From: a virus
Taxonomy: Duplodnaviria; Caudoviricetes
IMG/VR virus record: IMGVR_UViG_3300037400_005963
Coordinates: 32,001-96,000 of that record
DNA length: 64,000 nucleotides
Direction: 5' to 3' (one strand)
Below the pieces are notes generated by a model, which worked only from the letters and a program-made list of their open reading frames with translations, had not been told where the DNA came from and did not search any database. The position numbers and the translations under genes were made by a program. Shown here piece after piece: positions 46,663 to 63,603 of this stretch (its first letter is position 1; every line of letters begins with the position of its first letter).

Positions 46663-46825
46663 AAATAAAAGGTGTCTCAATGCAGGAGTCGGGTGAAAAA
46701 GGGAATAACCTATATCCCTAATCCAATTCCTCAAGCTAGACCTGCATTGGACACTCCCCTGAAAATCTATGATTTCATATTGTAGAGGAAAAAATGAAAA
46801 ATATATGTTTCCTCTGTATATAAGG
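46663..46825 (-). ncRNA. Candidate small RNA unit 1
   Basis: CCTTATATAC motif (46816-46825), TTTTCATTTT segment, long hairpin GTGTCCAATGCAGG...CCTGCATTGAGACAC, then T-rich tract. Confidence 0.45.
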
Positions 46826-47135
46826 AAAAATTAAAAATAAGGGAAAAAAGATGGGGGATTTAACGTTAAAAAATGTTTCAAATGTTAATAAAACATAGAA
46901 TTTAGCATCTAAGTGTTAAAATGGAAGAAAAGTTTTATCAAGTTAGGAGAAACCCCGAAGAAGAATTTAAGGAAATTTCGGGTAATTTAGGGACAAAATT
47001 AAAAAGAAAACTGGAGATTTAATAAAAACAAAATCTAAAATTAAGAGATTTTGTCCAGATTCCGATAAAATGAATTCAATAGAGGAAATTTGTAGAGAAA
47101 TATAAATATAGTTAAATTTTTATTTTCCTCACTTT

Positions 47136-47145
47136 CCTTATATAT
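47136..47145 (+). promoter_or_regulatory. CCTTATA promoter-like motif
   Basis: One of ~11 intergenic copies. Confidence 0.55.
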
Positions 47146-47439
47146 ATGATACAGCCAGGAAAAAATATAATTTATGATTCAAGTCAAGAAAGAGTAAGTT
47201 TAGAATATCTTTTAGCTCATACCAATAAAAGATATAGTGAACTCTTAAAAACTATTAAGCATGTAGATACAAGTTTAAACTTACAGGGAACTACTTGGAG
47301 AATACAAGGCTATATTCCCCTAGAAGACTTCAAAGATATCGGTGGGGGATTGAGTTTAATTTTAAAATTCTCTGCTTACATCGGAATAACAAAAGAGGGA
47401 TTAGAAATATGGTCACTGGAACTAGAATATGTCCCGTGA
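47146..47439 (+). CDS. Hypothetical protein
   Basis: First plus-strand ORF after the strand switch. Confidence 0.55.
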   Translation: MIQPGKNIIYDSSQERVSLEYLLAHTNKRYSELLKTIKHVDTSLNLQGTTWRIQGYIPLEDFKDIGGGLSLILKFSAYIGITKEGLEIWSLELEYVP

Positions 47440-47442
47440 TAC

Positions 47443-47528
47443 CCTTATAAGTAACAGATAGTTTCATTTTAGGTAAATTTGTAAAACTAACTCGGATCTG
47501 AGAAAGATGTGAGTTAGTTATTTTTTTT
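47443..47528 (+). ncRNA. Candidate small RNA unit 2
   Basis: CCTTATAAGT, GTTTCATTTT segment, AACTAACTC..TCTGAGAAAGA..GAGTTAGTT hairpin, T8 tract. Confidence 0.5.
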
Positions 47529-47556
47529 CTATCCGCTAAATCTAAAATCCTATCAT

Positions 47557-47580
47557 ACCCTTATATGCAGAGATAATTAA
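47557..47580 (+). promoter_or_regulatory. Promoter-like motif, 24-bp identical copy at 49012
   Basis: ACCCTTATATGCAGAGATAATTAA. Confidence 0.65.
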
Positions 47581-47612
47581 AACTTATTATATTAATGAAA
47601 CTTTTTTATTAA

Positions 47613-48944
47613 ATGAGCAAAAAAACATCAACAAAGAAGAGTTATGTTTACTTGGCAGCAGAGGTAGATAAAAAAGGCAACCACATACACTACAAGATCG
47701 GTTGCTCTACCCAAGTAGAAAAGCGAGTAAATGGAAAAATCACGAGTGACAACGGGAATGACATCATCCTGTTGAAAAAGAAAGAAGGTGATCGCGAATT
47801 AGAGAGATACCTGATCTACACTCGATATAAAAAGTATCGAATCCACGGAGAATGGTTTTTACCAGATAAATTTATTTTCGCGGATTTTGATTCGGTCATC
47901 AAACCAGACGATGCAAAAGTTCTTATTGAGAATTATGAAAATGCACTGGACGAGAGTGGCCGAAGGCAGAAAGTTGAAAAAATTACTAAGATCTCCAAGA
48001 GAGAGATCAAGAAAGTGATGAAGAACTGCGGAGGATACACGTTGAAGCTTGAGGGCGGAGCACGTCATTTTATTGACATTAAGAAAGCCGTCAAGAATAA
48101 CGTTCCCCTGCTTACACCTTCATACAACCGCGTGCACGGTCCCGATCAACAGAGGACCGGCAAGAGTATAAGTCTGTATGGATCACAAGGTCCACTGATG
48201 GTTATTACGCCTATCATGGCGGATGCAGCCGGAATAGAATACAGACATTTTGATGGAACCAAGTGTTCCGCATCAGATAAGAAGACAGGTTTGGTCATCG
48301 TCGATGGTAATGGACGAGTAGATTACTTACTCAAAGTCCCATTTGAATATTGGCCAAAAACCTTAATCGCGAGCTTTCCTGTAGAAGATTGTTTGGGCTA
48401 TTACGATATTGCAAAAATAATTCAGGAAGTTAACGTAAACACGAAGCCCTGGCATACCGCAGATTATAATTTAATGAGAGCGATTGAAAGGGGCCCACAT
48501 CCGATGTTTGATTCAATCCAAGAAGCAAGAGCTAAAGGATATCCTTATAGCACAGCTTGTATAATCTATACGCTGAGGGATAATATTAAGAAGAGCACTA
48601 TTCTTGGAACGAAAGACAACGACGAACTTGCTGAAAACTATAAATACGCATTAATCGTCCACGAAGAGATGGTTAAGAAGTTTGGCGAGGGAAAAGACGG
48701 AGTGATTAAATCCATTAAGATATCTAAGTTAATTAGAGATCAATGGAATAAGTTTGTGGCATCTAGCGATGCCGATACAGCAACTAAGAGGATCTGTGAG
48801 TTCATAAGATCCATTTCTAAAGATGTAGTTGAGAGAATGCGAGAAGCAACTCCAACGACTACCAAGGAAGGGTTGAGAGTAACTCGAGATGAGGTACGTG
48901 AAAAAGAATTTTCGGTTGCCTTTGATATGTTCATTCATAAATAG
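47613..48944 (+). CDS. T5orf172/MUG113 (GIY-YIG-like) domain fused to a ParB-N-like domain
   Basis: YVYLA...YKIGCS...KRV...LERYL...RIHGEWF; then LVIVDGNGR...EVNVNTKPW. Confidence 0.7.
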   Translation: MSKKTSTKKSYVYLAAEVDKKGNHIHYKIGCSTQVEKRVNGKITSDNGNDIILLKKKEGDRELERYLIYTRYKKYRIHGEWFLPDKFIFADFDSVIKPDDAKVLIENYENALDESGRRQKVEKITKISKREIKKVMKNCGGYTLKLEGGARHFIDIKKAVKNNVPLLTPSYNRVHGPDQQRTGKSISLYGSQGPLMVITPIMADAAGIEYRHFDGTKCSASDKKTGLVIVDGNGRVDYLLKVPFEYWPKTLIASFPVEDCLGYYDIAKIIQEVNVNTKPWHTADYNLMRAIERGPHPMFDSIQEARAKGYPYSTACIIYTLRDNIKKSTILGTKDNDELAENYKYALIVHEEMVKKFGEGKDGVIKSIKISKLIRDQWNKFVASSDADTATKRICEFIRSISKDVVERMREATPTTTKEGLRVTRDEVREKEFSVAFDMFIHK

Positions 48945-48966
48945 ATCTTCTAAAGTTTAGCTTAAG

Positions 48967-48999
48967 GAAGGAGGGATTCGTATTATCCCCCTTCTTTTT
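48967..48999 (+). terminator. Intrinsic terminator
   Basis: GAAGGAGGGAT...ATCCCCCTTC plus T-tract. Confidence 0.7.
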
Positions 49000-49011
49000 C
49001 TTTCCCCCTAC

Positions 49012-49035
49012 ACCCTTATATGCAGAGATAATTAA
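49012..49035 (+). promoter_or_regulatory. Promoter-like motif
   Basis: ACCCTTATATGCAGAGATAATTAA, identical to 47557. Confidence 0.65.
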
Positions 49036-49062
49036 TAATTTACTAATAAAAACAAAAATACT

Positions 49063-49296
49063 ATGACGACAACAATTAATCTAATTGCAGCCGGAGCTGC
49101 CGGTGCACACGTTGGTCAATACAGTGTTGCCAATAAGAAGGATCTCATTCTTGCTATTCAACAGGGATGGGATTATGCCCAAAGCGATCCCTCAATGTGG
49201 GACGCTCAGGAGATGGAAGTCCACGTTCCTGGTAAGGGATACGTAGGAAGTGATTGGAACATCCCAGCAATCTGTGAGAAGCTGGGACTTGAATAA
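49063..49296 (+). CDS. Hypothetical protein, monocistronic
   Basis: Bracketed by promoter motif and terminator-like hairpin at ~49300-49328. Confidence 0.7.
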   Translation: MTTTINLIAAGAAGAHVGQYSVANKKDLILAIQQGWDYAQSDPSMWDAQEMEVHVPGKGYVGSDWNIPAICEKLGLE

Positions 49297-49391
49297 AAAA
49301 AGTGGGGAATTAACTCCCTTCTTTTTTTATTTCACTCATGAGGGTTTTGAAAGAAAACCACAATACTAAGGAGTTTCCCTGAGCGAAAGCA

Positions 49392-49485
49392 ATAAAAAAA
49401 TAAAAAGAATTCCTATCTATCTCAGACTGGAATTCTACTTTGGCAAACATTAGAAAAAATTTTCAATGATTCTTCATATATAAGA
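49392..49485 (-). ncRNA. Candidate small RNA unit 3
   Basis: TCTTATATATG motif, AATCATTG segment, AGAATTCC.GTCTGAGATAGAT.GGAATTCT hairpin, T-tract. Confidence 0.5.
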
Positions 49486-49576
49486 GTATGAAGGGATTTA
49501 ATTACGAAGTCGAGTTTTCCGATAATGAACCTCACCTCGAAGCTCAAGCGAGAGAGGTGATGGTGAATAGGAAAAT

Positions 49577-49736
49577 GAGTTAAATGAAGAGGTTCTAACG
49601 AGACTTTGAGTGAAACGAAAAGGGGAGTAGGTTCTCTGAATGAATTATAAAGAAAAGAATTATAATATTCCATTCAAAGAACCTTAACAGATCCTCATTT
49701 CATTCGGATCCTTATAAGAACCTTTTCATTCAACTC
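49577..49736. repeat. Nested inverted repeats upstream of the helicase-like gene
   Basis: 49577-49596 pairs with 49717-49736 (18/20); 49630-49648 pairs with 49661-49683. Confidence 0.7.
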
Positions 49737-49971
49737 TTCCTTCTATTTTTCTTATCTGTCCTCTTTGAGAGAGGCCAGGAAAAATATCAGAAAGAGGCTT
49801 CGCGAATAAAATAAAAAGATTTTCTAAAAAATATGATATATATATATTATATAAGTATTTCCCTCAAAGTTCCAATAAAATTAGAAAAATTTACTAAAAA
49901 AGGAGGTCATTTCCTAATACATAATTAGGGATACTCCTAACTTAATTTGATTAATTTTTAATATAAATTTT

Positions 49972-51984
49972 ATGAACAAAACAGTAATACAAATACCGAA
50001 GGGAATAAGATACATCTCGGATTTTGAAGAAAAGTATGGATTTCACTTAGAAGAATACCCATATATTTTAGATAAAAAATTGCCAGGTTGTGGGTTTACT
50101 ACTTGGGTTCTCACTAACTCTCAAAATATCATTCTAGCTAGTCCTAGAAAGATGTTAATGAGAAATAAAAAGGATCAGTTAGGCGATAGTATTTTCTTAG
50201 TAAATCTTCAATCGGTTGAACTAGATATAGACAAGGATTTAAATAAAAATACAAAAAGTAGTCAATCCAATAATTATATTCCAGTTTATGATAGAGCAGA
50301 ATTAAAAGCAAATCTATCAGAGTATATGTTGAAACGACAAGCAAAACAACTCCCTTGGAAAATAGTAGTAACTTATGATTCTTATCGAAAAGTAAAGGAA
50401 CTTTTGGAGGAGTTAAATATATTTCAAGAGTTCTATACTATCGTCGATGAGATGCAGAGTTTATGGGTTGATGTACGTTTTAAGCCTAGCACTGAGATAG
50501 AGTTTGTTGAATTACTAAAGACTGTTCAAAGGGTATGCTATGTTTCTGCTACCCCCATGATGGAAGAATATTTAGATTTAGTAGACTATTTCAATGTATT
50601 ACCTTATCATGAATTCGATTGGATTACCTTGGAACCGGATAGAGTAAAGGTTCCTAATATAATACCTAGAACACTTAAAAGCATTAACTTAGCTGCAAAA
50701 TCTATTATCCTTCCATATAAAGAAGGAAAATTTGAAAGTAAACTTCTGGAGAATCCTGAAACGGGGGAGATGGTAAATATAGAGTCTAGGGAGGCAGTTA
50801 TATATATTAATTCTGTCACTAATATAATAGGTATCATTAAAGCCTGTGGATTAAAACCGGAAGAAGTAAATATTCTCTGCTCTGATACACCTAATAATGT
50901 AAAAAGAATTGAAACTAGATTGAATAAAAAGAGACAGGGAATAATATATAGCATTGGTCGTGTTCCTACTAGAAATGAACCTAGGAAGATGTTTACTTTC
51001 TGCACCAGAACTGTTTATCTTGGGGCTGATTTTTACAGTGACAATGCTAGGACATTTATTTTCAGTGACGCCAATATAGATACATTAGCAGTGGATGTTG
51101 TTCTCGATCTTCCTCAAATCTTAGGTAGACAAAGGTTAATAGAAAATCCATGGAAAGATGAAGCGACTATCTATGTAAAGCCGACTATGAGATATAAAGC
51201 GATGAGTGAAGAAGATTTTAATAAAGAACTAGAAAGAAAATTAAAAGAAACACAGGATTTATTGACTTCTTATGAGAACACTCCCGATGACGCAAAGTTA
51301 AGTTTAGTTAGTCGTCTTGAAACTATAGCTAAAGATTATAATTATCGAGATGACTATGTATCCGTCAATCGTCACGCAGGATCTCAGCCAGTCCCTGTCT
51401 TTAATAATCTTGTTGCTATTGCAGAGAAAAGAGCCTTCGATATTCAACAAAAGGATTATGTTGATCGTGTTATGATTCTTAATAGAATAGCATCCAGTGG
51501 TTTTAATATAGTTACTAGACATAATGATACAATTCAAGATTTTCTTTATAGGCTTAACGAAATAAAGGGAACACGAAATAGACTCGAATTCATCTGTAAT
51601 AACTGTTCTAAGTTTTCTAAATCAGAACAGGAGGCTATTTTTGCCGAAATTTCAACCTTTTATAGAAACTTTTATTTGGGATTAGGTCCAGACAGATGTA
51701 AAGCGCTTAGTTATAATTATACACTTCTAAATAAAGAGTATAATACTAAGTTCTTTGATGTGGATTTAGTGAAGGAAAAGATTTTAGGAAAATTTCTAGA
51801 GGGGAGTAAATATTCGACGTCGAATATAAAATCAATCCTAAAAGATCTCTACTCTGAATTAGGTTATAAAAAGACACCTAAAGCCAGTGATCTAGAGGAG
51901 TATTTTGAATTGAAAAAGATTAAGACTAAAGATCAATCTGGGAAATGGGTTAATGGTTTTGAATTATTAAAAAAGAGACTGTGA
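49972..51984 (+). CDS. Superfamily-2 helicase-like protein (origin-binding/UL9-like architecture)
   Basis: PGCGFTT (degenerate motif I), IVDEMQ (II), SAT (III), TRTVYLGADF (V), QILGRQR (VI). Confidence 0.7.
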   Translation: MNKTVIQIPKGIRYISDFEEKYGFHLEEYPYILDKKLPGCGFTTWVLTNSQNIILASPRKMLMRNKKDQLGDSIFLVNLQSVELDIDKDLNKNTKSSQSNNYIPVYDRAELKANLSEYMLKRQAKQLPWKIVVTYDSYRKVKELLEELNIFQEFYTIVDEMQSLWVDVRFKPSTEIEFVELLKTVQRVCYVSATPMMEEYLDLVDYFNVLPYHEFDWITLEPDRVKVPNIIPRTLKSINLAAKSIILPYKEGKFESKLLENPETGEMVNIESREAVIYINSVTNIIGIIKACGLKPEEVNILCSDTPNNVKRIETRLNKKRQGIIYSIGRVPTRNEPRKMFTFCTRTVYLGADFYSDNARTFIFSDANIDTLAVDVVLDLPQILGRQRLIENPWKDEATIYVKPTMRYKAMSEEDFNKELERKLKETQDLLTSYENTPDDAKLSLVSRLETIAKDYNYRDDYVSVNRHAGSQPVPVFNNLVAIAEKRAFDIQQKDYVDRVMILNRIASSGFNIVTRHNDTIQDFLYRLNEIKGTRNRLEFICNNCSKFSKSEQEAIFAEISTFYRNFYLGLGPDRCKALSYNYTLLNKEYNTKFFDVDLVKEKILGKFLEGSKYSTSNIKSILKDLYSELGYKKTPKASDLEEYFELKKIKTKDQSGKWVNGFELLKKRL

Positions 51985-51996
51985 CACCCATAGAAT

Positions 51997-52075
51997 CCTT
52001 ATATATGAAGCATATTCACTTTGTTAATACAATTTCCTAACCAAACCTGAGATGGGCTAGGTTAGGTCTTTTTTT
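51997..52075 (+). ncRNA. Candidate small RNA unit 4
   Basis: CCTTATATATG, ATTCACTTTG segment, CCTAACC..CCTGAGATGG..GGTTAGG hairpin, T7 tract. Confidence 0.5.
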
Positions 52076-52088
52076 GTCCCTCCCATAC

Positions 52089-52099
52089 CCTTATATATG
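52089..52099 (+). promoter_or_regulatory. CCTTATATATG promoter-like motif
   Basis: Intergenic copy ~45 bp upstream of 52143. Confidence 0.6.
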
Positions 52100-52142
52100 T
52101 GATAATTAAATTATTCTAAAAACAAACTAAAAAATAAGAAAA

Positions 52143-52706
52143 ATGAAAGAAGAATTAGCTTGGAAAATTTATAATTTTATAAATTCCTGGAAAGCAGGCA
52201 AGTTTGGAGAAATTAGCCTACAAGAGGCTTTAGACTCAAATACAGACTTTGACATTACAATTATGGGGTCAAGTATGTTGCGAGTAATTCCTTTTAAAGA
52301 ACTACTGGATTTAGTCGCAAACGTGGATTATATAGTTCACGAATCTTATCCTATTCGCTTTAAAGTAAAAAATAATGAAGAGATAGTTAATTACGAGTGT
52401 GGTATAGCTGTTTGTGACAAAAACGTAAGTGAAGATTTAATAAATGACGAACTAGAAGCACAGTATTTAACTCGTCTTGAAAATATAAAAGAGAGATCTG
52501 TACTATTGGCACAGAATCCTGATGACATGTACTATGAAGAGATAGAGAAAGACTTGAGAGAGAAATGTAATATAACGGACGATTCCATTATTATCTTTGA
52601 AGATGATGTGAGTTTTACGGGAGAAAGGCCGTACTTACTTTATGGATCAAATAAAGAATTACAGTTAATTTATGACCCGGATGACGACGAAGATATTGAG
52701 TCTTGA
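52143..52706 (+). CDS. Acidic hypothetical protein
   Basis: ORF between promoter motif and terminator. Confidence 0.7.
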   Translation: MKEELAWKIYNFINSWKAGKFGEISLQEALDSNTDFDITIMGSSMLRVIPFKELLDLVANVDYIVHESYPIRFKVKNNEEIVNYECGIAVCDKNVSEDLINDELEAQYLTRLENIKERSVLLAQNPDDMYYEEIEKDLREKCNITDDSIIIFEDDVSFTGERPYLLYGSNKELQLIYDPDDDEDIES

Positions 52707-52712
52707 TAGGAG

Positions 52713-52749
52713 AAGAGGAGAGGGTTTAAACTTCTCCTTTTCTTTTTTT
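52713..52749 (+). terminator. Intrinsic terminator
   Basis: AGGAGAG...TTCTCCT plus T-tract. Confidence 0.6.
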
Positions 52750-52762
52750 CATCCCCACATAT

Positions 52763-52773
52763 CCTTATAAATG
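52763..52773 (+). promoter_or_regulatory. CCTTATAAATG motif heading the small-gene operon
   Basis: Directly upstream of the tightly packed 52797-63482 array. Confidence 0.6.
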
Positions 52774-52796
52774 AATTAATTATAAATATTTTACAC

Positions 52797-53183
52797 ATGA
52801 AAGAAGATTTTATATACAAATTTAGTGAGGAAGATTATTTTCAGAATCACATAGATGTTTGTCATCTGAAGGAAGTTTACACGTTCGATAAGTACCTCCC
52901 AATCGATAAGATTCTTGAGATCTTCGAGGGAATTAAGAAAGAGTGGGAAGGAAAAGATGCAGAGTTTTGTTTCGATTTCTACGATACCGATGACAGTGTG
53001 ACGCTTAGTGCTAAATACTGGGAACCGGAAACAGAGGAACAATTCACTAATAGACGAGCGAAAGAACTTTTTGATAAGCAGCAGGAGATTAATAAATTGA
53101 AATATCTAATGCTGACTTATCCAGATTATGCAGAAAATTTTATGAAAACTATTAAATCTGAGAAAGATGAAGATAACAATTAA
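52797..53183 (+). CDS. Hypothetical protein
   Basis: ORF track; first in operon. Confidence 0.65.
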   Translation: MKEDFIYKFSEEDYFQNHIDVCHLKEVYTFDKYLPIDKILEIFEGIKKEWEGKDAEFCFDFYDTDDSVTLSAKYWEPETEEQFTNRRAKELFDKQQEINKLKYLMLTYPDYAENFMKTIKSEKDEDNN

Positions 53184-53352
53184 ACTTCAGGTTGAAATGG
53201 AATTCGACAGCTCTTTATCAGCTTTCCTTGATTTTGACGAACCAGGGAAAGAGGAGTTAAAAGAGATGGTAAAAGATTCCGTTGAGGATTATTTCTTATC
53301 TGAATGCATTGGCTATCAGAATGAGAATAAACTTAAAGTAACTGTGACGTAA
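53167..53352 (+). CDS. Small hypothetical protein
   Basis: Overlapping start/stop with neighbours. Confidence 0.55.
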   Translation: MKITIKLQVEMEFDSSLSAFLDFDEPGKEELKEMVKDSVEDYFLSECIGYQNENKLKVTVT

Positions 53353-53615
53353 TGGTCCTATACTTTATAATATCCCTGATAAACGTATTCTTACATATAG
53401 TTAGAAGTATTTTAGTAATTAAAGCAGGAAAATTCGTAGCTTCTCTGTCTAATTGCATCTGTTATACCTTCTCGGCTGTGGTAATAAAATTCATTGCCGA
53501 AAGTGACTTAATGGTTGCAATAATAGTACAGGCGACAACTAACTTCTTTGGTTGTTACTTAGCTATGATATTCTGCGATAAAATATTAAAGAAAAAACAC
53601 AATGAAGAATTTTAA
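53352..53615 (+). CDS. Small multi-pass membrane protein (DUF5698/DUF2179 N-terminal-like)
   Basis: INVFLHIVRSILVIK...NFFGCYLAM; three hydrophobic helices. Confidence 0.55.
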   Translation: MVLYFIISLINVFLHIVRSILVIKAGKFVASLSNCICYTFSAVVIKFIAESDLMVAIIVQATTNFFGCYLAMIFCDKILKKKHNEEF

Positions 53616-53913
53616 AGATTTTAAAGAGCGATTGAAAGTATGTTGGCATGTGCTAACTAAACAGAATTACGCATTTTTTGCAGTAAATGAAAATGCACTG
53701 GTCTTTGATGATAATGGTAACTACGATCACGTTCATGAAAGTGGAGTAGCGTCATATTCAAGTGTCCTTAACTCTTGGTTTTATAAGACTAGTGATGGAA
53801 AAAAGAAAACCTTCGGGTGGTTTTTCTGGGGATCTATTAAAGATTTCGCACAGTCGGAGGAACAAAAATACGAAGAGTCCGATGGAAACAGACGATCTGA
53901 AGAATCTGATTGA
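53602..53913 (+). CDS. Hypothetical protein
   Basis: ORF track; packed operon. Confidence 0.6.
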   Translation: MKNFKDFKERLKVCWHVLTKQNYAFFAVNENALVFDDNGNYDHVHESGVASYSSVLNSWFYKTSDGKKKTFGWFFWGSIKDFAQSEEQKYEESDGNRRSEESD

Positions 53914-54232
53914 TGAACTTTGGGAACGACGACAATCTGAGCCGAAAACATCAATAAAGATCGAAGATGGCGAGGAAGAGAGTAGATTAAAAGTTATCTA
54001 TGCCGCAGGAGTGATTGATTACTTGATAAAGAGTAGTAAAGAAAATCGAATTCGTGAAGAGAAGATCATTCAAGCTACCTGCGATTGGATAAGGAAGCAT
54101 GATTATTTTGGAAAAGATCATGCTAAAACAGTAATCGAAGTCTACAAAAATTACATTCGAGAGATAATTAATTGTCTATTGAATGAAATTAAAGTACAAG
54201 GAGATCTAAGAGATGATAAGGAAAGACGATGA
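53882..54232 (+). CDS. Hypothetical protein
   Basis: Likely start METDDLK at 53882 rather than 53762. Confidence 0.55.
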   Translation: METDDLKNLIDELWERRQSEPKTSIKIEDGEEESRLKVIYAAGVIDYLIKSSKENRIREEKIIQATCDWIRKHDYFGKDHAKTVIEVYKNYIREIINCLLNEIKVQGDLRDDKERR

Positions 54233-54341
54233 ATATTTCGGACTATCATAGAAAACAAAACGAAAGAGAAGAACGGCAGGGATTATCTTGCTTAGGTTGG
54301 ATTTTCCTTGCTTTCCTAGTATACTGTTTAATTATATTATT

Positions 54342-54572
54342 ATGAAAAATAAAAAGAAAAGAGATAGAGGAATAGCTTTTGGAAAGATATGGACAAAAGA
54401 GGATGATGGATTTTGGAGTATCGAATTCCGCTTCCTACCTAGCATCACATTATATCTGAACGGCTATAAATTTAAAGGCGGCGTTGATGATTATCAGCTT
54501 ACCTTTAGTTGGCTGTTATGGTATGTACAGCTCTACTCATTTGAAGTAGAAGATTGGGAGGACGAGGTATGA
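54342..54572 (+). CDS. Hypothetical protein
   Basis: Likely start MKNKKKRD. Confidence 0.5.
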   Translation: MKNKKKRDRGIAFGKIWTKEDDGFWSIEFRFLPSITLYLNGYKFKGGVDDYQLTFSWLLWYVQLYSFEVEDWEDEV

Positions 54573-54657
54573 ATGATTACAAAAAGATCATTAAGTGTAT
54601 AGGATTTTTCCTCTTGGGATTATTAATTGGTTATTTAATAATTAATCTAATAATATT

Positions 54658-55464
54658 ATGACAGAAGAAGAAAGAAAATTAGTACTTAAGGATATATGTT
54701 CGAGGTTACCGTATGATATTATTGTTAAAGATGAGTATGGCGACTATATAGAAGTAAACATCTATACAGCAAATCTTGAACATTTAATAGATAGAGTGTC
54801 AGAAGGTATTGTTAAAATGGTTCTTCGCCCAATGTCAAGCATGACGGATGAGGAAAAGAAAGAATTTGAAGAGATTTTTAAAGGTTCTTTTCAATATTTC
54901 AATAGCAGTATAATATCTGACAGCCGAATATATGATAGAAATGAGGCAGTATTTGTCGGAGAGGAAAAATGTGGAGAACTTATTGATTGGCTCAATAAGA
55001 AAATGTTTGATTTCAGAAGACTTATCCTTAAAGATCTTGCATTAAGTACAGAAGAGTATAACCCTTATGTTGAAAATAAAGATATGAAACAAGAACATAA
55101 ATTTAAAGTTGGTGACCGAATTACTAATGGTCGATATACAAGACTTGTTGTGGGTATTAATTCTGATCATCCTTGGTATATGTTCAAAGATGGCACATCA
55201 AAGCGTATAAGGGATATTGATAAAAAATATTATCTAATAGAAAATAAAGATTTAAAGACTATGGATAAAGAAACCGCACTCCAGGCAGCAAATCTTATGT
55301 ATGACATTGAACATACCGAAGAATTAATTGATGATCTTAACGATATGATAGCAACTAAGGAGTATTTAAATACTACTTCCTATCTCGTAAGAATTCTCAG
55401 TGATGCTTGTCAGAGATGTAGAGAGTATAAAAAACAATTAGAAGAAGAACTTGAAAAATTATAG
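54658..55464 (+). CDS. Paralog family A protein fused to two further modules
   Basis: KDICSRLPY...LRPMSSM...NKKMFDFRRLILKDLALSTEEYNPY, then KFKVGD module, then a coiled-coil module. Confidence 0.7.
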   Translation: MTEEERKLVLKDICSRLPYDIIVKDEYGDYIEVNIYTANLEHLIDRVSEGIVKMVLRPMSSMTDEEKKEFEEIFKGSFQYFNSSIISDSRIYDRNEAVFVGEEKCGELIDWLNKKMFDFRRLILKDLALSTEEYNPYVENKDMKQEHKFKVGDRITNGRYTRLVVGINSDHPWYMFKDGTSKRIRDIDKKYYLIENKDLKTMDKETALQAANLMYDIEHTEELIDDLNDMIATKEYLNTTSYLVRILSDACQRCREYKKQLEEELEKL

Positions 55465-55466
55465 AT

Positions 55467-55685
55467 ATGACGGAGAAAGATAAAAAAGCAAAACAGAGAG
55501 TAGACGATGAAGTAGATCTTAGAATAAAAATATCTAAACTTCTAAGAGACTTCTCGAAAAAATACGATGTTGAATTAACTCACATTGATATAAGAAAAAA
55601 TGAGTTCTATCCAAGTACATCGGGTTCACAACCTCCGATGTATGTTATGGATCTATACTGGAGATTCGATTATCTTGGTCATTAA
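55467..55685 (+). CDS. Hypothetical protein
   Basis: ORF track. Confidence 0.6.
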   Translation: MTEKDKKAKQRVDDEVDLRIKISKLLRDFSKKYDVELTHIDIRKNEFYPSTSGSQPPMYVMDLYWRFDYLGH

Positions 55686-55699
55686 AGAAGAAACTTTAT

Positions 55700-56140
55700 A
55701 TGAAATCAGAAGAAAGCATGAAACTAGAAGAAAAAGAACTATTACTTCGAGACCTTTGTGGGAGATTACCTTATCAAGTTAAAGTAAGTGTAAATGGCGG
55801 TAAAGAGCCATGGACTTTAAGGGGCATGTTTGAAGGTGATCATACTGGTATGGTGTTAATTTTAGAGCCGCCATTTCCATCAAAAGATGTGTATCCAAAA
55901 ACATCAAATTGGCAGTTATCACAATGTAAACCCTACCTCCGTCCAATGGAAAGTATGAAGTTGGAAGAATATTATGAACTTGAAGAATTAGTTAGAACAG
56001 AAAATTCAAATTTAAATCTTGATGATACTACTGCAAGAGTTACAATTGACTGGTTCAACAAGAATATGTTTGATTACCGAGGTCTCATTCCTAAAGACCT
56101 TGCATTAAGTACAGAAGAGTATAACCCTTATAAAAAATAA
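55700..56140 (+). CDS. Paralog family A protein
   Basis: RDLCGRLPY...KPYLRPMESM...NKNMFDYRGLIPKDLALSTEEYNPY. Confidence 0.75.
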   Translation: MKSEESMKLEEKELLLRDLCGRLPYQVKVSVNGGKEPWTLRGMFEGDHTGMVLILEPPFPSKDVYPKTSNWQLSQCKPYLRPMESMKLEEYYELEELVRTENSNLNLDDTTARVTIDWFNKNMFDYRGLIPKDLALSTEEYNPYKK

Positions 56141-56144
56141 AATT

Positions 56145-56621
56145 ATGGGAAAAGAAGTTAAAATAACCCCTCCAGAGGGATATGAAATTGATAAAGAAAA
56201 CTCTACTTTTGAGTGTATTAAATTTAAACCTGTTGCAAAAAAGAAGTGGAGAGGTGCTTATGACTCATTAGTTAGCGGATATCTTATAGAGACTGATTCT
56301 AATATACGTCATTGGACAGATCTTAGTGAAGGTGGCGAGAATATTAATATCTTTGCTACCGAGAAACAAGCCAAGTCTGCCCTTGCTATGGCACAAATTA
56401 GTCAAATCATGGCTAATGATGATAGATTTGGTGGTGTTGTTACTGAAGAAGAGTGGAAAGATACAACTCTTAAATTTGTAATTAATAGAGTAAGAAACAC
56501 AATAAATAAAGCTGCTTTTGGAGATAGCTATGAGTTTCTTTCTTTTCACACTCAAGAACAACGTGATTTATTCCTCGAAGAAAACGAGGACTTGATTAAA
56601 GATTATTTAATGATTGATTAA
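56145..56621 (+). CDS. Hypothetical phage protein
   Basis: ORF track; PPEGYEIDKENSTFECIKFK N-terminus. Confidence 0.7.
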   Translation: MGKEVKITPPEGYEIDKENSTFECIKFKPVAKKKWRGAYDSLVSGYLIETDSNIRHWTDLSEGGENINIFATEKQAKSALAMAQISQIMANDDRFGGVVTEEEWKDTTLKFVINRVRNTINKAAFGDSYEFLSFHTQEQRDLFLEENEDLIKDYLMID

Positions 56622-56622
56622 T

Positions 56623-57051
56623 ATGAGACCAAGAGAATTAATGATTGGAGATTATGTCATTCGTAAGAATGTACCGAATGAAATCTTGATAGTTGACACG
56701 ATAGATTCAATCAGAGATATAGTGTATCTTGATTTGGATGGGTTGGGTATAACTGAAAAGATAGAAAACATTGAACCTATTCCGCTCACAGCTGAAATCC
56801 TTGAGAAGAATGGGTTTACAGGAGGTGAGTATAAAAGTTGGACGGGAGACGTTTGGTACTTAGAAGAGGAGGGATTCAGAAAAATAGGCTTGACTATGAG
56901 CAGAAAAGAGTCAACGTTGTGGGGAGAGAAAATAAAACCCCTCTATCCAGATTCTATCGGCCATAAGTTTGCAGTACCAAATATCAAATTTGTTCATCAA
57001 CTTCAACACTCGCTAAGGCTGTGTGGTATTAATAAGGAGATTGAGATATGA
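56623..57051 (+). CDS. Paralog family B protein (YopX-like)
   Basis: ELMIGDYV...IEPIPLTAEILEKN...VHQLQHSLRLCGINKEI; likely start MRPRE. Confidence 0.65.
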   Translation: MRPRELMIGDYVIRKNVPNEILIVDTIDSIRDIVYLDLDGLGITEKIENIEPIPLTAEILEKNGFTGGEYKSWTGDVWYLEEEGFRKIGLTMSRKESTLWGEKIKPLYPDSIGHKFAVPNIKFVHQLQHSLRLCGINKEIEI

Positions 57052-57213
57052 AACTATTACAAATTATTTGTGGATTATTTGGACATAAGTGGGCATTCTA
57101 CACTAAAGGACAGATGTGTAAGCGATGCGGCAAAAAGAAAAACATGGATAAATGGTACTACGAAATTAAAGAAGACAATAAACAAAACGAACAGATTATT
57201 AAACTTCAAGATT

Positions 57214-57978
57214 ATGGAGAAATTTAATGTAGCAAATTTTTTAGAGAACGCTCCTATAGGACTTGTACTATATTCAAAGTTCTTAGGTGAGCAGGTAGAG
57301 TTCAATAAGGTTATTCTTCATGAGTTCTCAGAGTATGAAGGTTCTCAGCATATCATTGAGTGTCTCAAGTATGATAATGATGGCAATCTTGATGATGAGA
57401 AGGTATTCTTTGATGCTTATGGGAGAATTAAGACAAGTTTCTACGGGAATATCATTGGTACTGATGTTGACCTGATGCCTGACGATGTAAATGAATGGAA
57501 TGATGCTGGTATCTGCGCACTTATTAGTGAAAATTCTATGTGTGTCGACAAGGTGCTCATGGATAGGTTTGACCCAGATGATGATTTAGAATCTCCTTGG
57601 TTCATTGGTAATACTGCTATGTGGAGTTTTGATAATGCATTCGACAATGACTGGTCAAGTGTAAGATTCCATAAGTTTGACTTTAGCAATGTTCGCTTTG
57701 CCACTGAAGAGGAGACTCAAGAATTTTTTGATATATTACATAAGTATGGTTCTGATTTCAAGGATGGTAAGCCAATTAAAGATGGTAAGGATGCTGAACC
57801 AGAATGCAGAAATGCTGATAAAGAACAATTCTTTAATGCGCTGACCGATATATGTGACGCTTGGAAAGGAACAATTCCTGACCATGACTTCCAGGAAGTA
57901 CTATTCAAATTTGATACAGAGGTGGTTTTACCGGAACTTAAGAAAGCATTTGGTTGGAACTCTGAAATCATAAAATAA
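57214..57978 (+). CDS. Hypothetical protein
   Basis: Likely start MEKFNVANFL. Confidence 0.65.
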   Translation: MEKFNVANFLENAPIGLVLYSKFLGEQVEFNKVILHEFSEYEGSQHIIECLKYDNDGNLDDEKVFFDAYGRIKTSFYGNIIGTDVDLMPDDVNEWNDAGICALISENSMCVDKVLMDRFDPDDDLESPWFIGNTAMWSFDNAFDNDWSSVRFHKFDFSNVRFATEEETQEFFDILHKYGSDFKDGKPIKDGKDAEPECRNADKEQFFNALTDICDAWKGTIPDHDFQEVLFKFDTEVVLPELKKAFGWNSEIIK

Positions 57979-57988
57979 AGATTGAGAT

Positions 57989-58225
57989 ATGACATTTATA
58001 ATTATTTCATTAGCAATTGGTGTTGCATATTTTGGCCTTTACTGGTTAATTTCAGAGGAGATTAAAGACCATAAATATGAAGTTATGAATAAGCTCAAAT
58101 TGATTGAGAAACAGAATAATCTGTTACGAGAAGAAGTCAACGAGTTACGATCCCAGCTTGATGACACGTGGACAGATGTAAAGGTGATTAAGAATAATGT
58201 TAAGAATAATATTAATAAGGAATGA
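57989..58225 (+). CDS. Single-TM coiled-coil protein
   Basis: N-terminal hydrophobic helix, then heptads. Confidence 0.6.
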   Translation: MTFIIISLAIGVAYFGLYWLISEEIKDHKYEVMNKLKLIEKQNNLLREEVNELRSQLDDTWTDVKVIKNNVKNNINKE

Positions 58226-58398
58226 CACAAGAACAAAAAGAAAAAATACGCAATATATTATATAATAACAAGTGTATTGCTGATTATAAAGAAGAAGATC
58301 CCTTTGTTGGAATATACTTCAGTGACTTGATTGACTTATTAGAAGATTATAAACTTGACTTAATAAATGCGATAGATTATGAACCAAGACCAATTTAA
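58222..58398 (+). CDS. 58-aa hypothetical protein (below track cutoff)
   Basis: Hand translation MTQEQKEKIRNILY...EPRPI*; ATGA overlap. Confidence 0.55.
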   Translation: MTQEQKEKIRNILYNNKCIADYKEEDPFVGIYFSDLIDLLEDYKLDLINAIDYEPRPI

Positions 58399-58416
58399 TG
58401 AAATAAAGATTGAGAT

Positions 58417-58656
58417 ATGAAACTTATAACATATATATATGCTATAATTATATGTTCTATATTATCTCTTATTGTAATAATGCTTCTTATTATCGGCTTT
58501 CCATTTGCTGTTATTGTTGAAGTTATAACTTTTATTAAAGAAGCTATTTCAGAGGATGGATTTGAACATGGTGTTTGGCTTAAGCTATGTAAAGATTGTT
58601 TTATGTACATTAAACACGTGTATTGTTTAATTATTAATAGTCCTTATGAAGATTAA
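58417..58656 (+). CDS. Small membrane protein
   Basis: Long N-terminal hydrophobic stretch. Confidence 0.55.
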   Translation: MKLITYIYAIIICSILSLIVIMLLIIGFPFAVIVEVITFIKEAISEDGFEHGVWLKLCKDCFMYIKHVYCLIINSPYED

Positions 58657-58659
58657 GAT

Positions 58660-59043
58660 ATGAAAAGTTATACTAACATAGAAGAATCAAAGAAGTTGGC
58701 TGAGATACTGCCACCTGAGAGTGCAGATATGTGTTGGGGCATAAGTGATGAAACATTAAAATGGAAAACATTTCCATATTTATTGCCTTGGCGTGATTAT
58801 ACAGCAAAGGAACATTATCTTCCCTGTTGGTCACTTGCTGCACTGCTTGACCAATTAGATGATGTGATATGTGACAAAAATGGATATGAATATAAATTAG
58901 AGATCATTAAAGAAGGTGTGCAGTATTATTTAGTTTATGAGGGGATGCTTGATGCTGCATGTTATGAAACTTCTGTATTTGATGATCTCATTGATGCTTG
59001 CATTGAAATGATTTTTATACTTAAAGAAAAAGATTTAATATGA
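58660..59043 (+). CDS. Paralog family C protein
   Basis: YTNIEESKKL...SADMCW...PCWSLAALL...LKEKDLI. Confidence 0.7.
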   Translation: MKSYTNIEESKKLAEILPPESADMCWGISDETLKWKTFPYLLPWRDYTAKEHYLPCWSLAALLDQLDDVICDKNGYEYKLEIIKEGVQYYLVYEGMLDAACYETSVFDDLIDACIEMIFILKEKDLI

Positions 59044-59215
59044 AGATAAAATACATGAAAGGTAAAAGAAACAGATATAAATTTCCAATAGGTATTTATA
59101 TTTCTAAAATTCCTATTTATCCTTTAAATGATGGTAAGATTGAAAGTTATCATAAAAATATGAGAACAATAAACTTTAGAATTAAAAGAAATGTTTATAC
59201 TATTTTTATAAAAAT

Positions 59216-59566
59216 ATGAACAAGATTTGCACAGACATAGAACAATCTAAGAAACTTATTGAGTTAGGCATTGATGTCAATACTGCGGATATGATGTGGG
59301 ATGATTGGAGTCTTATTGATGAAGGATGGAAATCAATTGTTGGTTACTATCCTGAAATCGAAAAAGATTATGGAAGAAAATGCTATCCTGCTTGGTCGCT
59401 TGCGGCATTGCTTGAACAATTTGAAGATACAGTGGGATTAGCAAAAGATTATGGATTATGGTTTTGCTATGATAACAGAAAATCATATTGTTCAAAGCAT
59501 TATGATAACCCTGTTGATGCTGCTGTTGAAATGTTTAATAAACTCAAAGAAAAAGATTTGTTATGA
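59216..59566 (+). CDS. Paralog family C protein
   Basis: CTDIEQSKKL...TADMMW...PAWSLAALL...LKEKDLL. Confidence 0.7.
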   Translation: MNKICTDIEQSKKLIELGIDVNTADMMWDDWSLIDEGWKSIVGYYPEIEKDYGRKCYPAWSLAALLEQFEDTVGLAKDYGLWFCYDNRKSYCSKHYDNPVDAAVEMFNKLKEKDLL

Positions 59567-59735
59567 AACCAGAAGAAGAAATCAAACAAGAACAGGATAA
59601 TATTGCCCGTGCTAGAATTATGGCATGTAAACAGTGCAGATATTATTATACTGGATGCATGTTTTTTGGCTGTTGTGCAATTTATAATTATCATATGCAA
59701 CAGATTCATGAACTTGAAAAAGAAAGAAAATCAAA

Positions 59736-60137
59736 ATGACAAGAGAAGAAAAAGACTTGGTACTCCATGACCTCTGTGCGAGGTTGCCTTATAGGGTAAT
59801 TGGAGAATATTCTTGGAAAGGAAATGAACCTTATAATAGAGAATTAACAGGTTCTCTATTTGACGAATTAAAATCTTCATGGGATTCGACGGAAGACAGT
59901 GAATTTTTGCCTTACCTCCGTCCAATGTCAAGTATGACCGAGGAAGAGAAGAAAGAATATCAATCTCTATGTGTAATACATTCTGACCATGATGCTGATG
60001 ATAATGTCACTTATTATTATTTTGATACCGTTGAGTCGTTTGACTATCTTAATAAGAATATGTTTGACTACCGAGGTCTCATTGATAAAGACCTTGCATT
60101 AAGTACTGAGATATATAACCCTTATTATAAAGATTGA
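59736..60137 (+). CDS. Paralog family A protein
   Basis: HDLCARLPY...PYLRPMSSM...NKNMFDYRGLIDKDLALSTEIYNPY. Confidence 0.75.
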   Translation: MTREEKDLVLHDLCARLPYRVIGEYSWKGNEPYNRELTGSLFDELKSSWDSTEDSEFLPYLRPMSSMTEEEKKEYQSLCVIHSDHDADDNVTYYYFDTVESFDYLNKNMFDYRGLIDKDLALSTEIYNPYYKD

Positions 60138-60140
60138 ATT

Positions 60141-60344
60141 ATGGATGATGATTGGAACGTTAAACAAATTGTAGGTTTTGTGCTTATGATTTTCAGTGGG
60201 TTGGTAGGACTTGTAGCACTTATAGTTCTCTTATGCAAATTTTTAAGAGGAGAAATTGTTGGAGGTATATTGCTTGTGTTGATGATGATAACAGGAATCT
60301 ATCTCTGGAAGAAAGGTTCAAAAGAAAATAATAAAAAAGATTGA
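60141..60344 (+). CDS. Small 2-TM membrane protein
   Basis: Two hydrophobic helices, basic tail. Confidence 0.6.
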   Translation: MDDDWNVKQIVGFVLMIFSGLVGLVALIVLLCKFLRGEIVGGILLVLMMITGIYLWKKGSKENNKKD

Positions 60345-60347
60345 GAA

Positions 60348-60557
60348 ATGGTAAGCAAAGAAAAACGAGATGAGGTTTTTGAACATAACAAACCTTATCT
60401 GAAGGACAAGGATACAATGGAAGACTTGCTTCCAATCTGTGAGAGGTGTGAACAATGGTGTGGCAAGGAGCACGACTTTGAGGATTGCCGAAATCAACCA
60501 TGTTTTGAACTGTGGTTGAGTAACGAATACTTGGAGTGGTGTGAATCATTTAAATAA
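60348..60557 (+). CDS. Small Cys-rich protein
   Basis: CERCEQWC...DCRNQPC. Confidence 0.6.
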   Translation: MVSKEKRDEVFEHNKPYLKDKDTMEDLLPICERCEQWCGKEHDFEDCRNQPCFELWLSNEYLEWCESFK

Positions 60558-60577
60558 TCCCAATTAAAATTGATATT

Positions 60578-61636
60578 ATGGACTACGAAAGAAAATACAA
60601 AGAGGCTCTTGAGAGAGCATCAAAGATTTGTAATAGTGATTTTGAACCAAATGATAAATCAATATTATGTTCTATTATCTTCCCCGAACTCAAAGAGAGC
60701 GAGGACGAGAAGACAAGGAAAGACCTTACTGAATTTATTAAGAGTGCTTCAGGTGGATTCTTAAACTCTACAATACCGTGCAAAACATTCGGAGAATGGC
60801 TCGAATGGCTTGAAAAGCAAGGTAAAAAGTCTGTAAATATAGATGTTGAATCTATGGTAAGTTCATATGAACAAAGACTTGAAAGTCAAGGTGGTACAAA
60901 GTATACTCCTCTTGTTAATATGCGCTTAACTGCTTTTAGACATGGTGTTGAAAATGTATTAGATGAACTAAATTTAAAGAAACTTGAAAAGCAAGCTGAA
61001 AAAAAGCCTGCTGATAAGGTTGAACCAAAGTTTAAGGTTGGTGATTGGATTATTGCCACCGGTGAAGTGGTTTATCAAATAAAAGATATTCAAGGTCCAA
61101 ATGTTACTCTTATAGAGCCAAACGGAGATGAAAGTATTTTTGACATAAGTGTTTTAGATGACGCAAAGTTATGGACAATCGCTGACGTAAAAGATGGCGA
61201 TGTGCTTGTTGATGAGGACAATAACATAGGTCTTTATTTAGAAGAAAAGGATGATGTATATTGGCATTCTTGCATTTATCTTGGTTGCGATAATTGTCTT
61301 CGTGGCTTTAGTATAGGCGGTTATCATAAGCATAAAAATACTAAACCAGCAACTAAAGAGCAACGTGACCTGTTATTTCAGAAAATGAAAGAAGCGGGTT
61401 ACGAATGGGACAGTGAGAAGAAAGAATTGAAGAAAATTGAGCCAAAGAAAGTTAATGCCAATAAGGTAATTAATTGGGTTAATCCCGATAAGGTAATTGA
61501 ATGGCTGAAAGGTAGGATAAGAGAGACGAAAGAATATTTTGGTGAACATGGTGTATATTACGATACCCATTTGACATTACCTTATAGTTCTATTGAAGAC
61601 CTTATTAATGATTTTAAGGAAGATTTCGGACTATGA
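60578..61636 (+). CDS. Modular hypothetical phage protein
   Basis: IFPELKESEDE and EPKFKVGDWI modules. Confidence 0.7.
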   Translation: MDYERKYKEALERASKICNSDFEPNDKSILCSIIFPELKESEDEKTRKDLTEFIKSASGGFLNSTIPCKTFGEWLEWLEKQGKKSVNIDVESMVSSYEQRLESQGGTKYTPLVNMRLTAFRHGVENVLDELNLKKLEKQAEKKPADKVEPKFKVGDWIIATGEVVYQIKDIQGPNVTLIEPNGDESIFDISVLDDAKLWTIADVKDGDVLVDEDNNIGLYLEEKDDVYWHSCIYLGCDNCLRGFSIGGYHKHKNTKPATKEQRDLLFQKMKEAGYEWDSEKKELKKIEPKKVNANKVINWVNPDKVIEWLKGRIRETKEYFGEHGVYYDTHLTLPYSSIEDLINDFKEDFGL

Positions 61637-62040
61637 CAGAAGAAGAATTAATGATTGGTGACCTTGTACAAGTAAATGACGAAGTATGTAAGGTTATATC
61701 AATATCGTATTTTGACATTGGGATATCTGACAGTAAAGAAGATTTCTACAATGAGCATATTGATAACATTAAGCCCATTCCTCTTACCACAGAAATCTTG
61801 GAGAAAAACTTCGACTCCGAGAAAGTTGACTTCGAGGGACGTCATATCAGCACACGATACACTGACCGCAATGAGTTCCGTGACATCGTGATTGCTGAAT
61901 ATACTGACGGGATGTGGGAAGTTAAGATTGACGATGTAGATTTCAGTGACCCTCCGACCTGGAAGGTATATGTCTGTGACGTCCACGAATTGCAACACGC
62001 ATTGAGACTATGTAGTATTAATAAAGAAATTAAATTATGA
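61633..62040 (+). CDS. Paralog family B protein (YopX-like)
   Basis: ELMIGDLV...IKPIPLTTEILEKN...VHELQHALRLCSINKEI. Confidence 0.65.
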   Translation: MTEEELMIGDLVQVNDEVCKVISISYFDIGISDSKEDFYNEHIDNIKPIPLTTEILEKNFDSEKVDFEGRHISTRYTDRNEFRDIVIAEYTDGMWEVKIDDVDFSDPPTWKVYVCDVHELQHALRLCSINKEIKL

Positions 62041-62309
62041 AAAAGAAAAAAGACGACAAAACACTTGGATTGCTGGTATGGGCAATTGTTAGTGCCATCA
62101 TAATCGGCTTTTGCTGGTCGTGTGTAGAGAAGAACGCTGACGGCTCCATCCCCCTTAATAAGAACACAGAGGGCAGTTATTCATTGTCCGAATACCGTCA
62201 AATCGTTATTGACTCTTGTGAATATATCGAGGCGAACTATGCTCTATCTCATAAGGGAAATTGCAAGTTCTGTGCTGAGAGAAGAAAGAAAGAGCTTAAA
62301 GAAGAATGA
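62037..62309 (+). CDS. Membrane-anchored or lipoprotein-like small protein
   Basis: Basic N-terminus, hydrophobic helix ending CWSC; IDSCEYI...HKGNCKFC. Confidence 0.6.
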   Translation: MKKKKDDKTLGLLVWAIVSAIIIGFCWSCVEKNADGSIPLNKNTEGSYSLSEYRQIVIDSCEYIEANYALSHKGNCKFCAERRKKELKEE

Positions 62310-62402
62310 TATGACACCAGAAGATGAAGACAAATATTATGATTATTTTAGATATTGGTCAAAGGAACTTAGAAAAGATATTTTAAAAGAGTTATTAAAA
62401 AT

Positions 62403-62879
62403 ATGAATCAAGAAGTTAGACAAAAGTTAGTAGAGAGATGGGTAAATCCCGAGGATGTACAGTATCTAGATGAGGCTATTGAGAGCATCAATAAGCGTCG
62501 TAGTAAACAATATCAACATAAGTATGATATTACCAAGCCTCAGAAAACAAAGAGGTGGGAATACGTCTTCACCGAGAATGATGACCCCTATGATGCAGAT
62601 ATTGATGTTACCGTTGATCACGCCATCACAATGCTAAATCAGTTTAAGACAAAAGGTTATCCATATGTTGGATATGAGGACGAAGAACTAATTGTATATC
62701 GATATGAACTTGAAGCTGCAAGTGAATGGGCAAAGAAGATTAAAGGTGACATCTTACGAGAAATCAGTTCTGTTAAGAAGAGCCACAACACTCGTGAACA
62801 GAAGGTTGCTAAGATTGAAAAATTAGAGAAACAAATAGAAGAACTTAAAAAAGAATTAGAACAAGATAAAGATTCTTAA
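62403..62879 (+). CDS. Hypothetical protein with C-terminal coiled coil
   Basis: ORF track. Confidence 0.65.
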   Translation: MNQEVRQKLVERWVNPEDVQYLDEAIESINKRRSKQYQHKYDITKPQKTKRWEYVFTENDDPYDADIDVTVDHAITMLNQFKTKGYPYVGYEDEELIVYRYELEAASEWAKKIKGDILREISSVKKSHNTREQKVAKIEKLEKQIEELKKELEQDKDS

Positions 62880-62881
62880 TT

Positions 62882-63052
62882 ATGAGTGAGCAGCAGAAAG
62901 ATATGTTAATTGCTTGGTTTGATAATATAAAGCAGATGGCAGATAAGAGACCAAGTAATGACCTGAAAGAAGTATTAGAAGCAATTAGTACCTATGCAGA
63001 GATGTGTAAGGGAGATGTTAAGAATATGTTTTACTCTGACAATTTATCGTAG
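62882..63052 (+). CDS. 56-aa hypothetical protein (below track cutoff)
   Basis: Hand translation MSEQQKDMLIAWFDNIK...SDNLS*. Confidence 0.55.
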   Translation: MSEQQKDMLIAWFDNIKQMADKRPSNDLKEVLEAISTYAEMCKGDVKNMFYSDNLS

Positions 63053-63057
63053 AAATT

Positions 63058-63303
63058 ATGACAGAAAAACAATTTGAAAAGGCACTTAAATTAAGTAATG
63101 CGCTTAATTTAATCAATAAGACTTTAGAAGTTGTACCAGTTCTTAATCCCTCGGGTACTACAAATCACGTTGATCTGCGTTTTACTGATACTTGCGAGAA
63201 TAAAATTATTGCAAAATTAGCATACGACTTATTTCCAGAAGAATTCAAGGAATTACTATATAGGAAGAAAAAAGAACTAGAAGAAGAATTCAAAAAATTA
63301 TGA
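63058..63303 (+). CDS. Hypothetical protein
   Basis: Ends KKELEEEFKKL, similar to the last module of 54658..55464. Confidence 0.6.
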   Translation: MTEKQFEKALKLSNALNLINKTLEVVPVLNPSGTTNHVDLRFTDTCENKIIAKLAYDLFPEEFKELLYRKKKELEEEFKKL

Positions 63304-63482
63304 CAGAAGAACAAAAGAACTTAATAGTAATTAGGTATGAGATCGAGAAAAGAATCGAGCTCTATGAGACAGAAAGAAGAGAAGAAGGTTTGTCTCAAAT
63401 AGATAAAATAAGTCTTGGTGCTAGAATTGCTGCACTTCAAGAATTACTAGTTTTCATAAAAGGATTAGATAAGACTAATTAA
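63300..63482 (+). CDS. Hypothetical protein, last in operon
   Basis: Followed by a GGAGGGCC...GGCTCTCC hairpin and T-tract. Confidence 0.6.
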   Translation: MTEEQKNLIVIRYEIEKRIELYETERREEGLSQIDKISLGARIAALQELLVFIKGLDKTN

Positions 63483-63520
63483 GGGAGGGCCAAAATAAGG
63501 CTCTCCATTTCTTTTTAAAT

Positions 63521-63603
63521 TCTTATATGTGATAAAAAAATTTTTTTCATTTCATTCTTATTTATCTAGTTCATGTTCGGGAGGAATGTGAACTAGATTT
63601 TTT
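63521..63603 (+). ncRNA. Candidate small RNA unit 5
   Basis: TCTTATATGTG, TTTTCATTTCATT segment, ATCTAGTTCATGTTC-GGGAG-GAATGTGAACTAGAT hairpin, T-tract. Confidence 0.5.

Follow-up and report, generated by a model that had tools for sequence, protein, structure and literature searches.

Two regulatory RNAs described from the Bacteroidota, which are without the classical small-RNA chaperones, act close to translation starts: FopS binds at start codons, with a blocking mechanism demonstrated for FopS-10 (PMC11697453), and GibS acts at start codons through its 5′ 30-50 nucleotides (nt) (PMC7366714). A FopS sequence has also been noted in one Caudovirales phage (PMC11697453). Here we consider a 64,000-nt stretch of a Caudoviricetes genome (the window; positions 32,001 to 96,000 of IMG/VR record IMGVR_UViG_3300037400_005963), for which an earlier note had proposed five units of promoter, short RNA and terminator, free of open reading frames (ORFs), sharing a loop and carrying segments complementary to translation starts. 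All five units (U1 to U5) are present, as are the anti-start words quoted for them. Four of them, U2 to U5, together with a further copy, U6, just beyond the window, share a hairpin with homologues in many related phages and are on balance likely to be stand-alone phage genes for trans-acting, host-directed antisense RNAs of about 70-85 nt, built on the FopS and GibS plan of the Bacteroidales. The remaining unit, U1, is a different RNA. Added here are the contrast between stand-alone and gene-end occurrences of the hairpin, a family-wide test of anti-start fronts with orthologous counter-examples, and the recognition that U1 is a conserved RNA of a second, separate kind.

A hairpin family in stand-alone units

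Units U2 to U5 follow one plan: a promoter, a variable U-rich front of 30-40 nt, a hairpin and a T-tract. U2 occupies 47443..47528 on the plus strand (promoter 47443-47450, variable front about 47452-47484, hairpin 47485-47519 with loop GAGAA at 47500-47504, T-tract 47521-47528). U3 (49392..49485, minus strand; loop GAGAT at 49419-49423) lies upstream of, and divergent from, a helicase-like gene, and U4 (51997..52075, plus strand; hairpin 52037-52067, loop GAGAT at 52049-52053), with its own promoter, lies directly 3′ of the same gene. U5 is at 63521..63603 (plus strand; hairpin 63564-63598, loop GGGAG at 63579-63583), and its paralogue U6 is at G000:C1:96540-96625, G000 being the record that holds the window; a separate ordinary terminator precedes each of these two. 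The shared loop proposed earlier holds for U2 to U5 and fails for U1. A promoter-hairpin-T-tract pattern taken from these units matched U2 to U5 in the window and nothing in 100 shuffles, and the family covariance model matched U3 with an E-value of 9e-9. Folding z-scores were −4.0 for U1, −3.0 for U2 and −4.3 for U5, with U3 at −1.4 and U4 at −0.7. The units had been described as without plausible ORFs, which stands apart from an ORF of 83 amino acids (aa) that overlaps U3 (49422-49673, minus strand); it is probably spurious, because the orthologue in the related sequence L315 is stopped early and the frame is not conserved.

Blind scans of IMG/VR and metagenomes returned homologues of the family, often several per contig. 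In a gapless alignment of 44 rows, 92% of the cells were paired, versus 63% after shuffling and 36-49% in slid controls, and two-sided changes occurred in 12 of 13 pairs. The layout comprises a covarying lower stem, an often-mismatched pair, a G-U pair present in 42 of the 44 rows, then three further pairs and a loop of five bases. Rather than differing completely, as had been claimed, the stems follow an RYYY/RRRY consensus in their top 4 base pairs, which include the conserved G-U pair, in rows gathered with a pattern that itself included the hairpin top. The covariance model recovered extra copies with GUGA(N) loops, and the loop definition was widened to GNGA(N).

The setting of the hairpin is as informative as its shape. 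The motif is found in 44 of 56 stand-alone promoter-terminator units and in 2 of 115 gene-end terminators, a contrast which argues that it is not an ordinary terminator style and goes against the possibility that these hairpins serve only to end upstream genes. The complete 353-kb genome G002 carries some 30 units, which follow one another back to back in rows that reach seven or more; almost every one has a promoter to itself, and a few stand directly after a tRNA or gene. Across the family the fronts vary in length from about 20 to 75 nt, and the units behave as accessory cassettes, gained and lost between relatives: U3 and U4 are absent from L264, a close relative with a 97% identical helicase, and L011 carries at the U3 site nearly the same hairpin behind a different front. 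Given homologues in many related phages, covariation and the stand-alone context, the grouping of U2 to U5, with U6, as one family of predicted phage small-RNA genes is well supported; U1 falls outside it.

The promoter motif itself, (C/T)CTTATA, behaves as a phage promoter in its distribution. In G000, 32 of its 43 sites are non-coding, compared with 13% of the genome, and 20 sites lie no more than 90 nt from a gene start, versus one for the reversed motif; enrichment ahead of genes was seen in three phages.

What connects the family to known RNAs is the tail hairpin. Among the covariance model's matches in Bacteroidaceae genomes were copies of FopS; in Rfam, the GibS consensus shows the same G-U stem with a GuGAu loop, and the loops of FopS (GuGaa) and BTnc231 (GuGA) are related, so that a G-U top stem with a GNGA(N) loop is common to the phage units, to GibS and to a subtype of FopS. 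The phage-type terminal hairpin occurs in 7 of 32 host FopS copies, most of the others ending in another hairpin, and L191, L211 and L219 hold further host units with a host promoter, a front of their own and the phage-type hairpin. Because this tail is the same as that of the start-codon-blocking FopS and GibS, silencing of chosen host genes is the probable role of the phage RNAs. The units would be transcribed during infection; the unpaired U-rich front would base-pair with particular host mRNAs across their leader and start codon and block ribosome loading, as for FopS-10 and GibS; and the hairpin, its loop perhaps the protein-binding handle proposed earlier, would terminate transcription and be recognized by a host factor that stabilizes or delivers the RNA. 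For some fronts the pairing partner is probably leader sequence or another RNA, and not the AUG itself.

Two further observations concern the make-up of the units. Promoterless copies lie directly 3′ of a tRNA gene at L012:3276-3323 (minus strand), G002:C1:189662, L172:5390 and in L217 (family units plus one host FopS-like copy), a position that suggests release by tRNA 3′ processing. The rows in G002 also contain longer, GC-rich promoter-terminator units without the family hairpin (C1:102750-102860, 103040-103160, 6980-7090 and about 217700-217870), which are predicted further RNA classes.

Variable fronts and what they may pair with

A front was scored as anti-start when its reverse complement has an ATG, an A at −3 and an open frame. 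By this measure 25 of 61 non-redundant fronts qualify, compared with 7.9 ± 2.5 in dinucleotide shuffles (maximum of 1000, 19), and the sense-strand control gave 6 of 61. Read as its reverse complement, the front of U2 shows an A-rich leader, an ATG and then MKLS, and fronts of two different phages mirror the same start, MSIN. The anti-start fronts that the earlier note had proposed are supported at the level of the family. In G000 alone the count is 2 of 5 against 0.7 expected (p 0.15, not significant), and the closest orthologues of U2 and U3, in L315, have lost the anti-AUG. Pairing at starts is accordingly likely for roughly one third to one half of the family and not for every unit.

Several results weigh against silencing at host start codons. 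Besides the G000 count, more than half of the fronts (36 of 61) have no clear anti-start signature. U2 is identical in L265 and L266 but for T-tract length, and its L315 orthologue keeps the hairpin and the 3′ part of the front without the anti-AUG; the L315 orthologue of U3 likewise has an altered front without it, and in both units what the strains have in common is the portion 3′ of the anti-AUG. Conservation of the top stem and loop is partly built in, because that pattern was used to gather the rows. For self-targets, the best ungapped matches and the duplex energies equalled shuffled controls in G000 and in the complete G002, and host searches, each covering 250-350 Bacteroidales genomes, gave only chance-level matches. 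A pattern derived from U2 had 67 matches in 301 Bacteroidales genomes, about the same as its control, and BLAST of U1, U2 and one G002 row gave scattered matches in which no gene recurred. The front of the unit at G002:217912 matches the start of a probable pheS in L356 at 25 of 27 positions (G128:C53:10916-10942), which is chance level for 351 genomes and serves only as a lead.

Such variable fronts on a constant hairpin invite other explanations. One, which we regard as unlikely, is that the units are decoys in which the shared hairpin or U-rich front soaks up a host RNA-binding protein (an RbpB-like RRM protein, a nuclease or a defence sensor), the exact front mattering little. High copy number, a conserved hairpin with varying fronts and the lost anti-AUGs of U2 and U3 are all what a decoy would produce, and RbpB is reported to bind and counteract FopS (PMC11697453). 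Most FopS copies nevertheless bind RbpB though they end in another hairpin, with the peak of cross-linking and immunoprecipitation (CLIP) in their 5′ portion, and a decoy leaves the threefold excess of start-mirroring, open-frame fronts unexplained. Somewhat less probable still is base pairing in which the main targets are not host start codons: host small RNAs, leaders, rRNA, or the mRNAs of competing phages and mobile elements. The fronts without an anti-start signature would be accounted for, as would the position of the strain-conserved part of U2 and U3; no such match was found, in searches that left out rRNA and other phages.

The exchange of fronts on one scaffold, even at a single locus as between U3 and the L011 unit, and the tandem rows recall guide RNAs, with an undescribed phage or host effector protein reading the hairpin as a handle and the front steering RNA repression or cutting. 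This is improbable, as front length is not fixed, the only shared neighbour is the helicase-like gene, which is also found without units, and FopS and GibS pair with their targets in vitro without protein (PMC11697453, PMC7366714). No RRM, cold-shock or bS21 protein was found in four phages, a search that did not extend to Hfq, ProQ or CsrA. Least credible of all, and very improbable, is that these are ordinary terminators or insulators beside the leftover promoters of deleted genes, with no functional RNA. U2, U4 and U5 do lie directly after genes, and cassettes are gained and lost, with a 309-aa gene near U3 deleted in G000; however, U5 and U6 each come after a separate, ordinary terminator, the motif is nearly absent from gene-end terminators, and units stand back to back in rows.

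Beyond antisense silencing of host genes by U2 to U6, a broader and more tentative possibility is that the GNGA(N) hairpin serves generally as a handle on which a Bacteroidota RNA-silencing factor docks. Jumbo phages would then have made of it a programmable battery of up to about 30 swappable antisense fronts per genome, turning off selected genes of the host, perhaps those for defence, as part of an arms race played out on RNA sequence.

U1 and the surroundings of the units

U1 (46663..46825, minus strand) is a predicted structured leader consisting of a promoter (46825-46817), a variable 5′ part, a long hairpin and a weak T-run 26 nt before the next ATG. It has no family loop and no match by the family covariance model. 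Its 29-nt core (46742..46770, minus strand) recurs without change in G002 and G003, where protein identity to G000 has a median of 44%; the core is nearly identical in L012, L112 and L315 and, with one change, in L412. The long stem persists through G-U changes and a few changes on both sides, among only five sequences. Directly after U1 lies a gene for 132 aa (46239..46637, minus strand) that begins with an MI(I/V)LR tag, and every U1 homologue precedes, by 20-40 nt, the leading gene of a series tagged in this way (its frame is broken in G002). We therefore think it quite likely, from this arrangement, that U1 is a cis-acting leader of a tagged, putatively virion-cargo operon.

The anti-AUG stretch in the 5′ part of U1 is absent in its homologues. 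When transcription reads through, this stretch can, in G000 and L315, pair with the leader of the next gene, with a pair probability of about 0.98 and 5-7 kcal/mol, which places that leader second among 172 starts (p 0.007). This pairing is a lead only, because a local 5′ hairpin competes with it and it is not conserved beyond these two. Matches of the U1 stem pattern in IMG/VR were judged unrelated, from contig names alone, and the complement of the core matched host genomes only with 3 mismatches, the matches inspected lying within coding regions. U1 resembles the T4 leaders by which late genes on early transcripts are kept from translation, and the put RNA of HK022, in that a structured RNA is interposed between the phage promoter and a gene of late or structural type; it differs in lacking any sequence or Rfam match. 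As an undescribed and highly conserved leader, it may serve studies of late-gene control in this phage group.

G000 is a linear sequence of 156 kb, 42% complete, which points to a jumbo phage of about 370 kb, and its relatives appear from assembly names to be of rumen origin. No DNA match was found among GenBank phages. We infer a Bacteroidales host, because the RNA hairpin is common to host RNAs and the phage promoter and a helicase homologue occur in Bacteroidaceae genome bins. In five such bins (L344, L352, L350, L351, L347) the phage-type promoter lies in low-GC islands beside toxin-antitoxin-, HipA- and AbiE-type-looking pairs (judged from the N-terminus only), and once ahead of a helicase homologue; these islands may represent satellites or defence loci activated by a jumbo phage. 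A pattern search of the five bins found no family units. The hairpin is also matched in non-Bacteroidales genomes, where the matches may be chance terminators or binned phage DNA.

Around the units themselves, a 443-aa protein with a T5orf172/MUG113 N-terminal domain is encoded directly 3′ of U2 (47613-48944, plus strand), and the helicase-like gene next to U3 and U4 (670 aa; 49972..51984, plus strand) has homologues that adjoin family units in G000, G001, G002 and L011 and not in several other relatives. The spacer ahead of this gene (window 49700-49970) is AT-rich and hairpin-rich, has an overlapping two-way promoter motif at 49710/49719 and is conserved in L264 and, as far as its first part goes, in L315; it is a possible replication origin or control region. 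In two near-identical strains the 309-aa gene, with no Pfam family and its own promoter, lies 3′ of U3 (L265:2348-3277, minus strand); in G000 a decayed promoter is left at window 49338-49350. Elsewhere (G000:C1:119920-120032), two promoter motifs face each other across about 110 nt that hold no ORF, a possible sense/antisense RNA pair.

Relation to described RNAs

An Rfam scan of the region gave no match near cut-off. The best scores for RF04319 (FopS) were 22-23 bits in G000 and G002, below the cut-off of 56 bits, with U2 to U6 unmatched, and no unit, U1 included, matched RF04182 (GibS; about 145 nt, with R1 and R2 seeds). The FopS 5′ R1/R1′ seed is not conserved in the phage units, whose fronts differ and are FopS-like only in fragments (some, as in L114 and at G002:248021, resemble the FopS 5′ part), and the phage CTTATA motif stands in place of the host sigma-ABfr promoter. 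The phage units are not, on these comparisons, members of FopS. A likeness to lambda boxB or the sarcin-ricin loop was dropped, since the second base of the loop varies and the stem is canonical. Nor do the units form a CRISPR-like or other guide array, which would have fixed-length spacers in one transcript and a linked effector gene: nearly every unit has a promoter and terminator, lengths vary, and no effector neighbour was found.

If the proposed role is correct, the fronts would name the host genes that the phage needs silenced, and the conserved hairpin could serve both as bait in pull-downs and as a natural template for programming gene silencing in Bacteroides and Prevotella. A limited literature search found no published description of phage batteries of such RNAs, and the available text of the FopS and GibS papers does not name a GNGA(N)-type loop as a determinant (PMC11697453, PMC7366714).

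In layout the phage units, by predicted folds and covariation, have the single-stranded U-rich 5′ part, single terminator hairpin and U-tract of FopS (RF04319; PMC11697453), which is likewise multicopy and about 70 nt long. FopS keeps one front while its hairpin varies and uses a host housekeeping promoter, whereas the phage RNAs keep the hairpin, vary the front and use a phage promoter. The first hairpin of GibS (RF04182; PMC7366714) has the top stem, loop type and internal loop of the phage units; GibS differs in being a single-copy RNA of 145 nt with a fixed front and an internal hairpin. A further likeness is that BTnc231 (RF04180) ends in a GuGA hairpin. PreS of lambda and VpdS of VP882 are phage RNAs that target host mRNAs, as proposed here (PMC12197685; bioRxiv 10.1101/2024.10.31.621285), but they are single Hfq-dependent RNAs of temperate proteobacterial phages, with no paralogue battery on one scaffold. 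Known host-acting phage small RNAs being such single, Hfq-dependent cases, dozens of RNA genes on one host-derived scaffold would represent a new scale of RNA-based host takeover.

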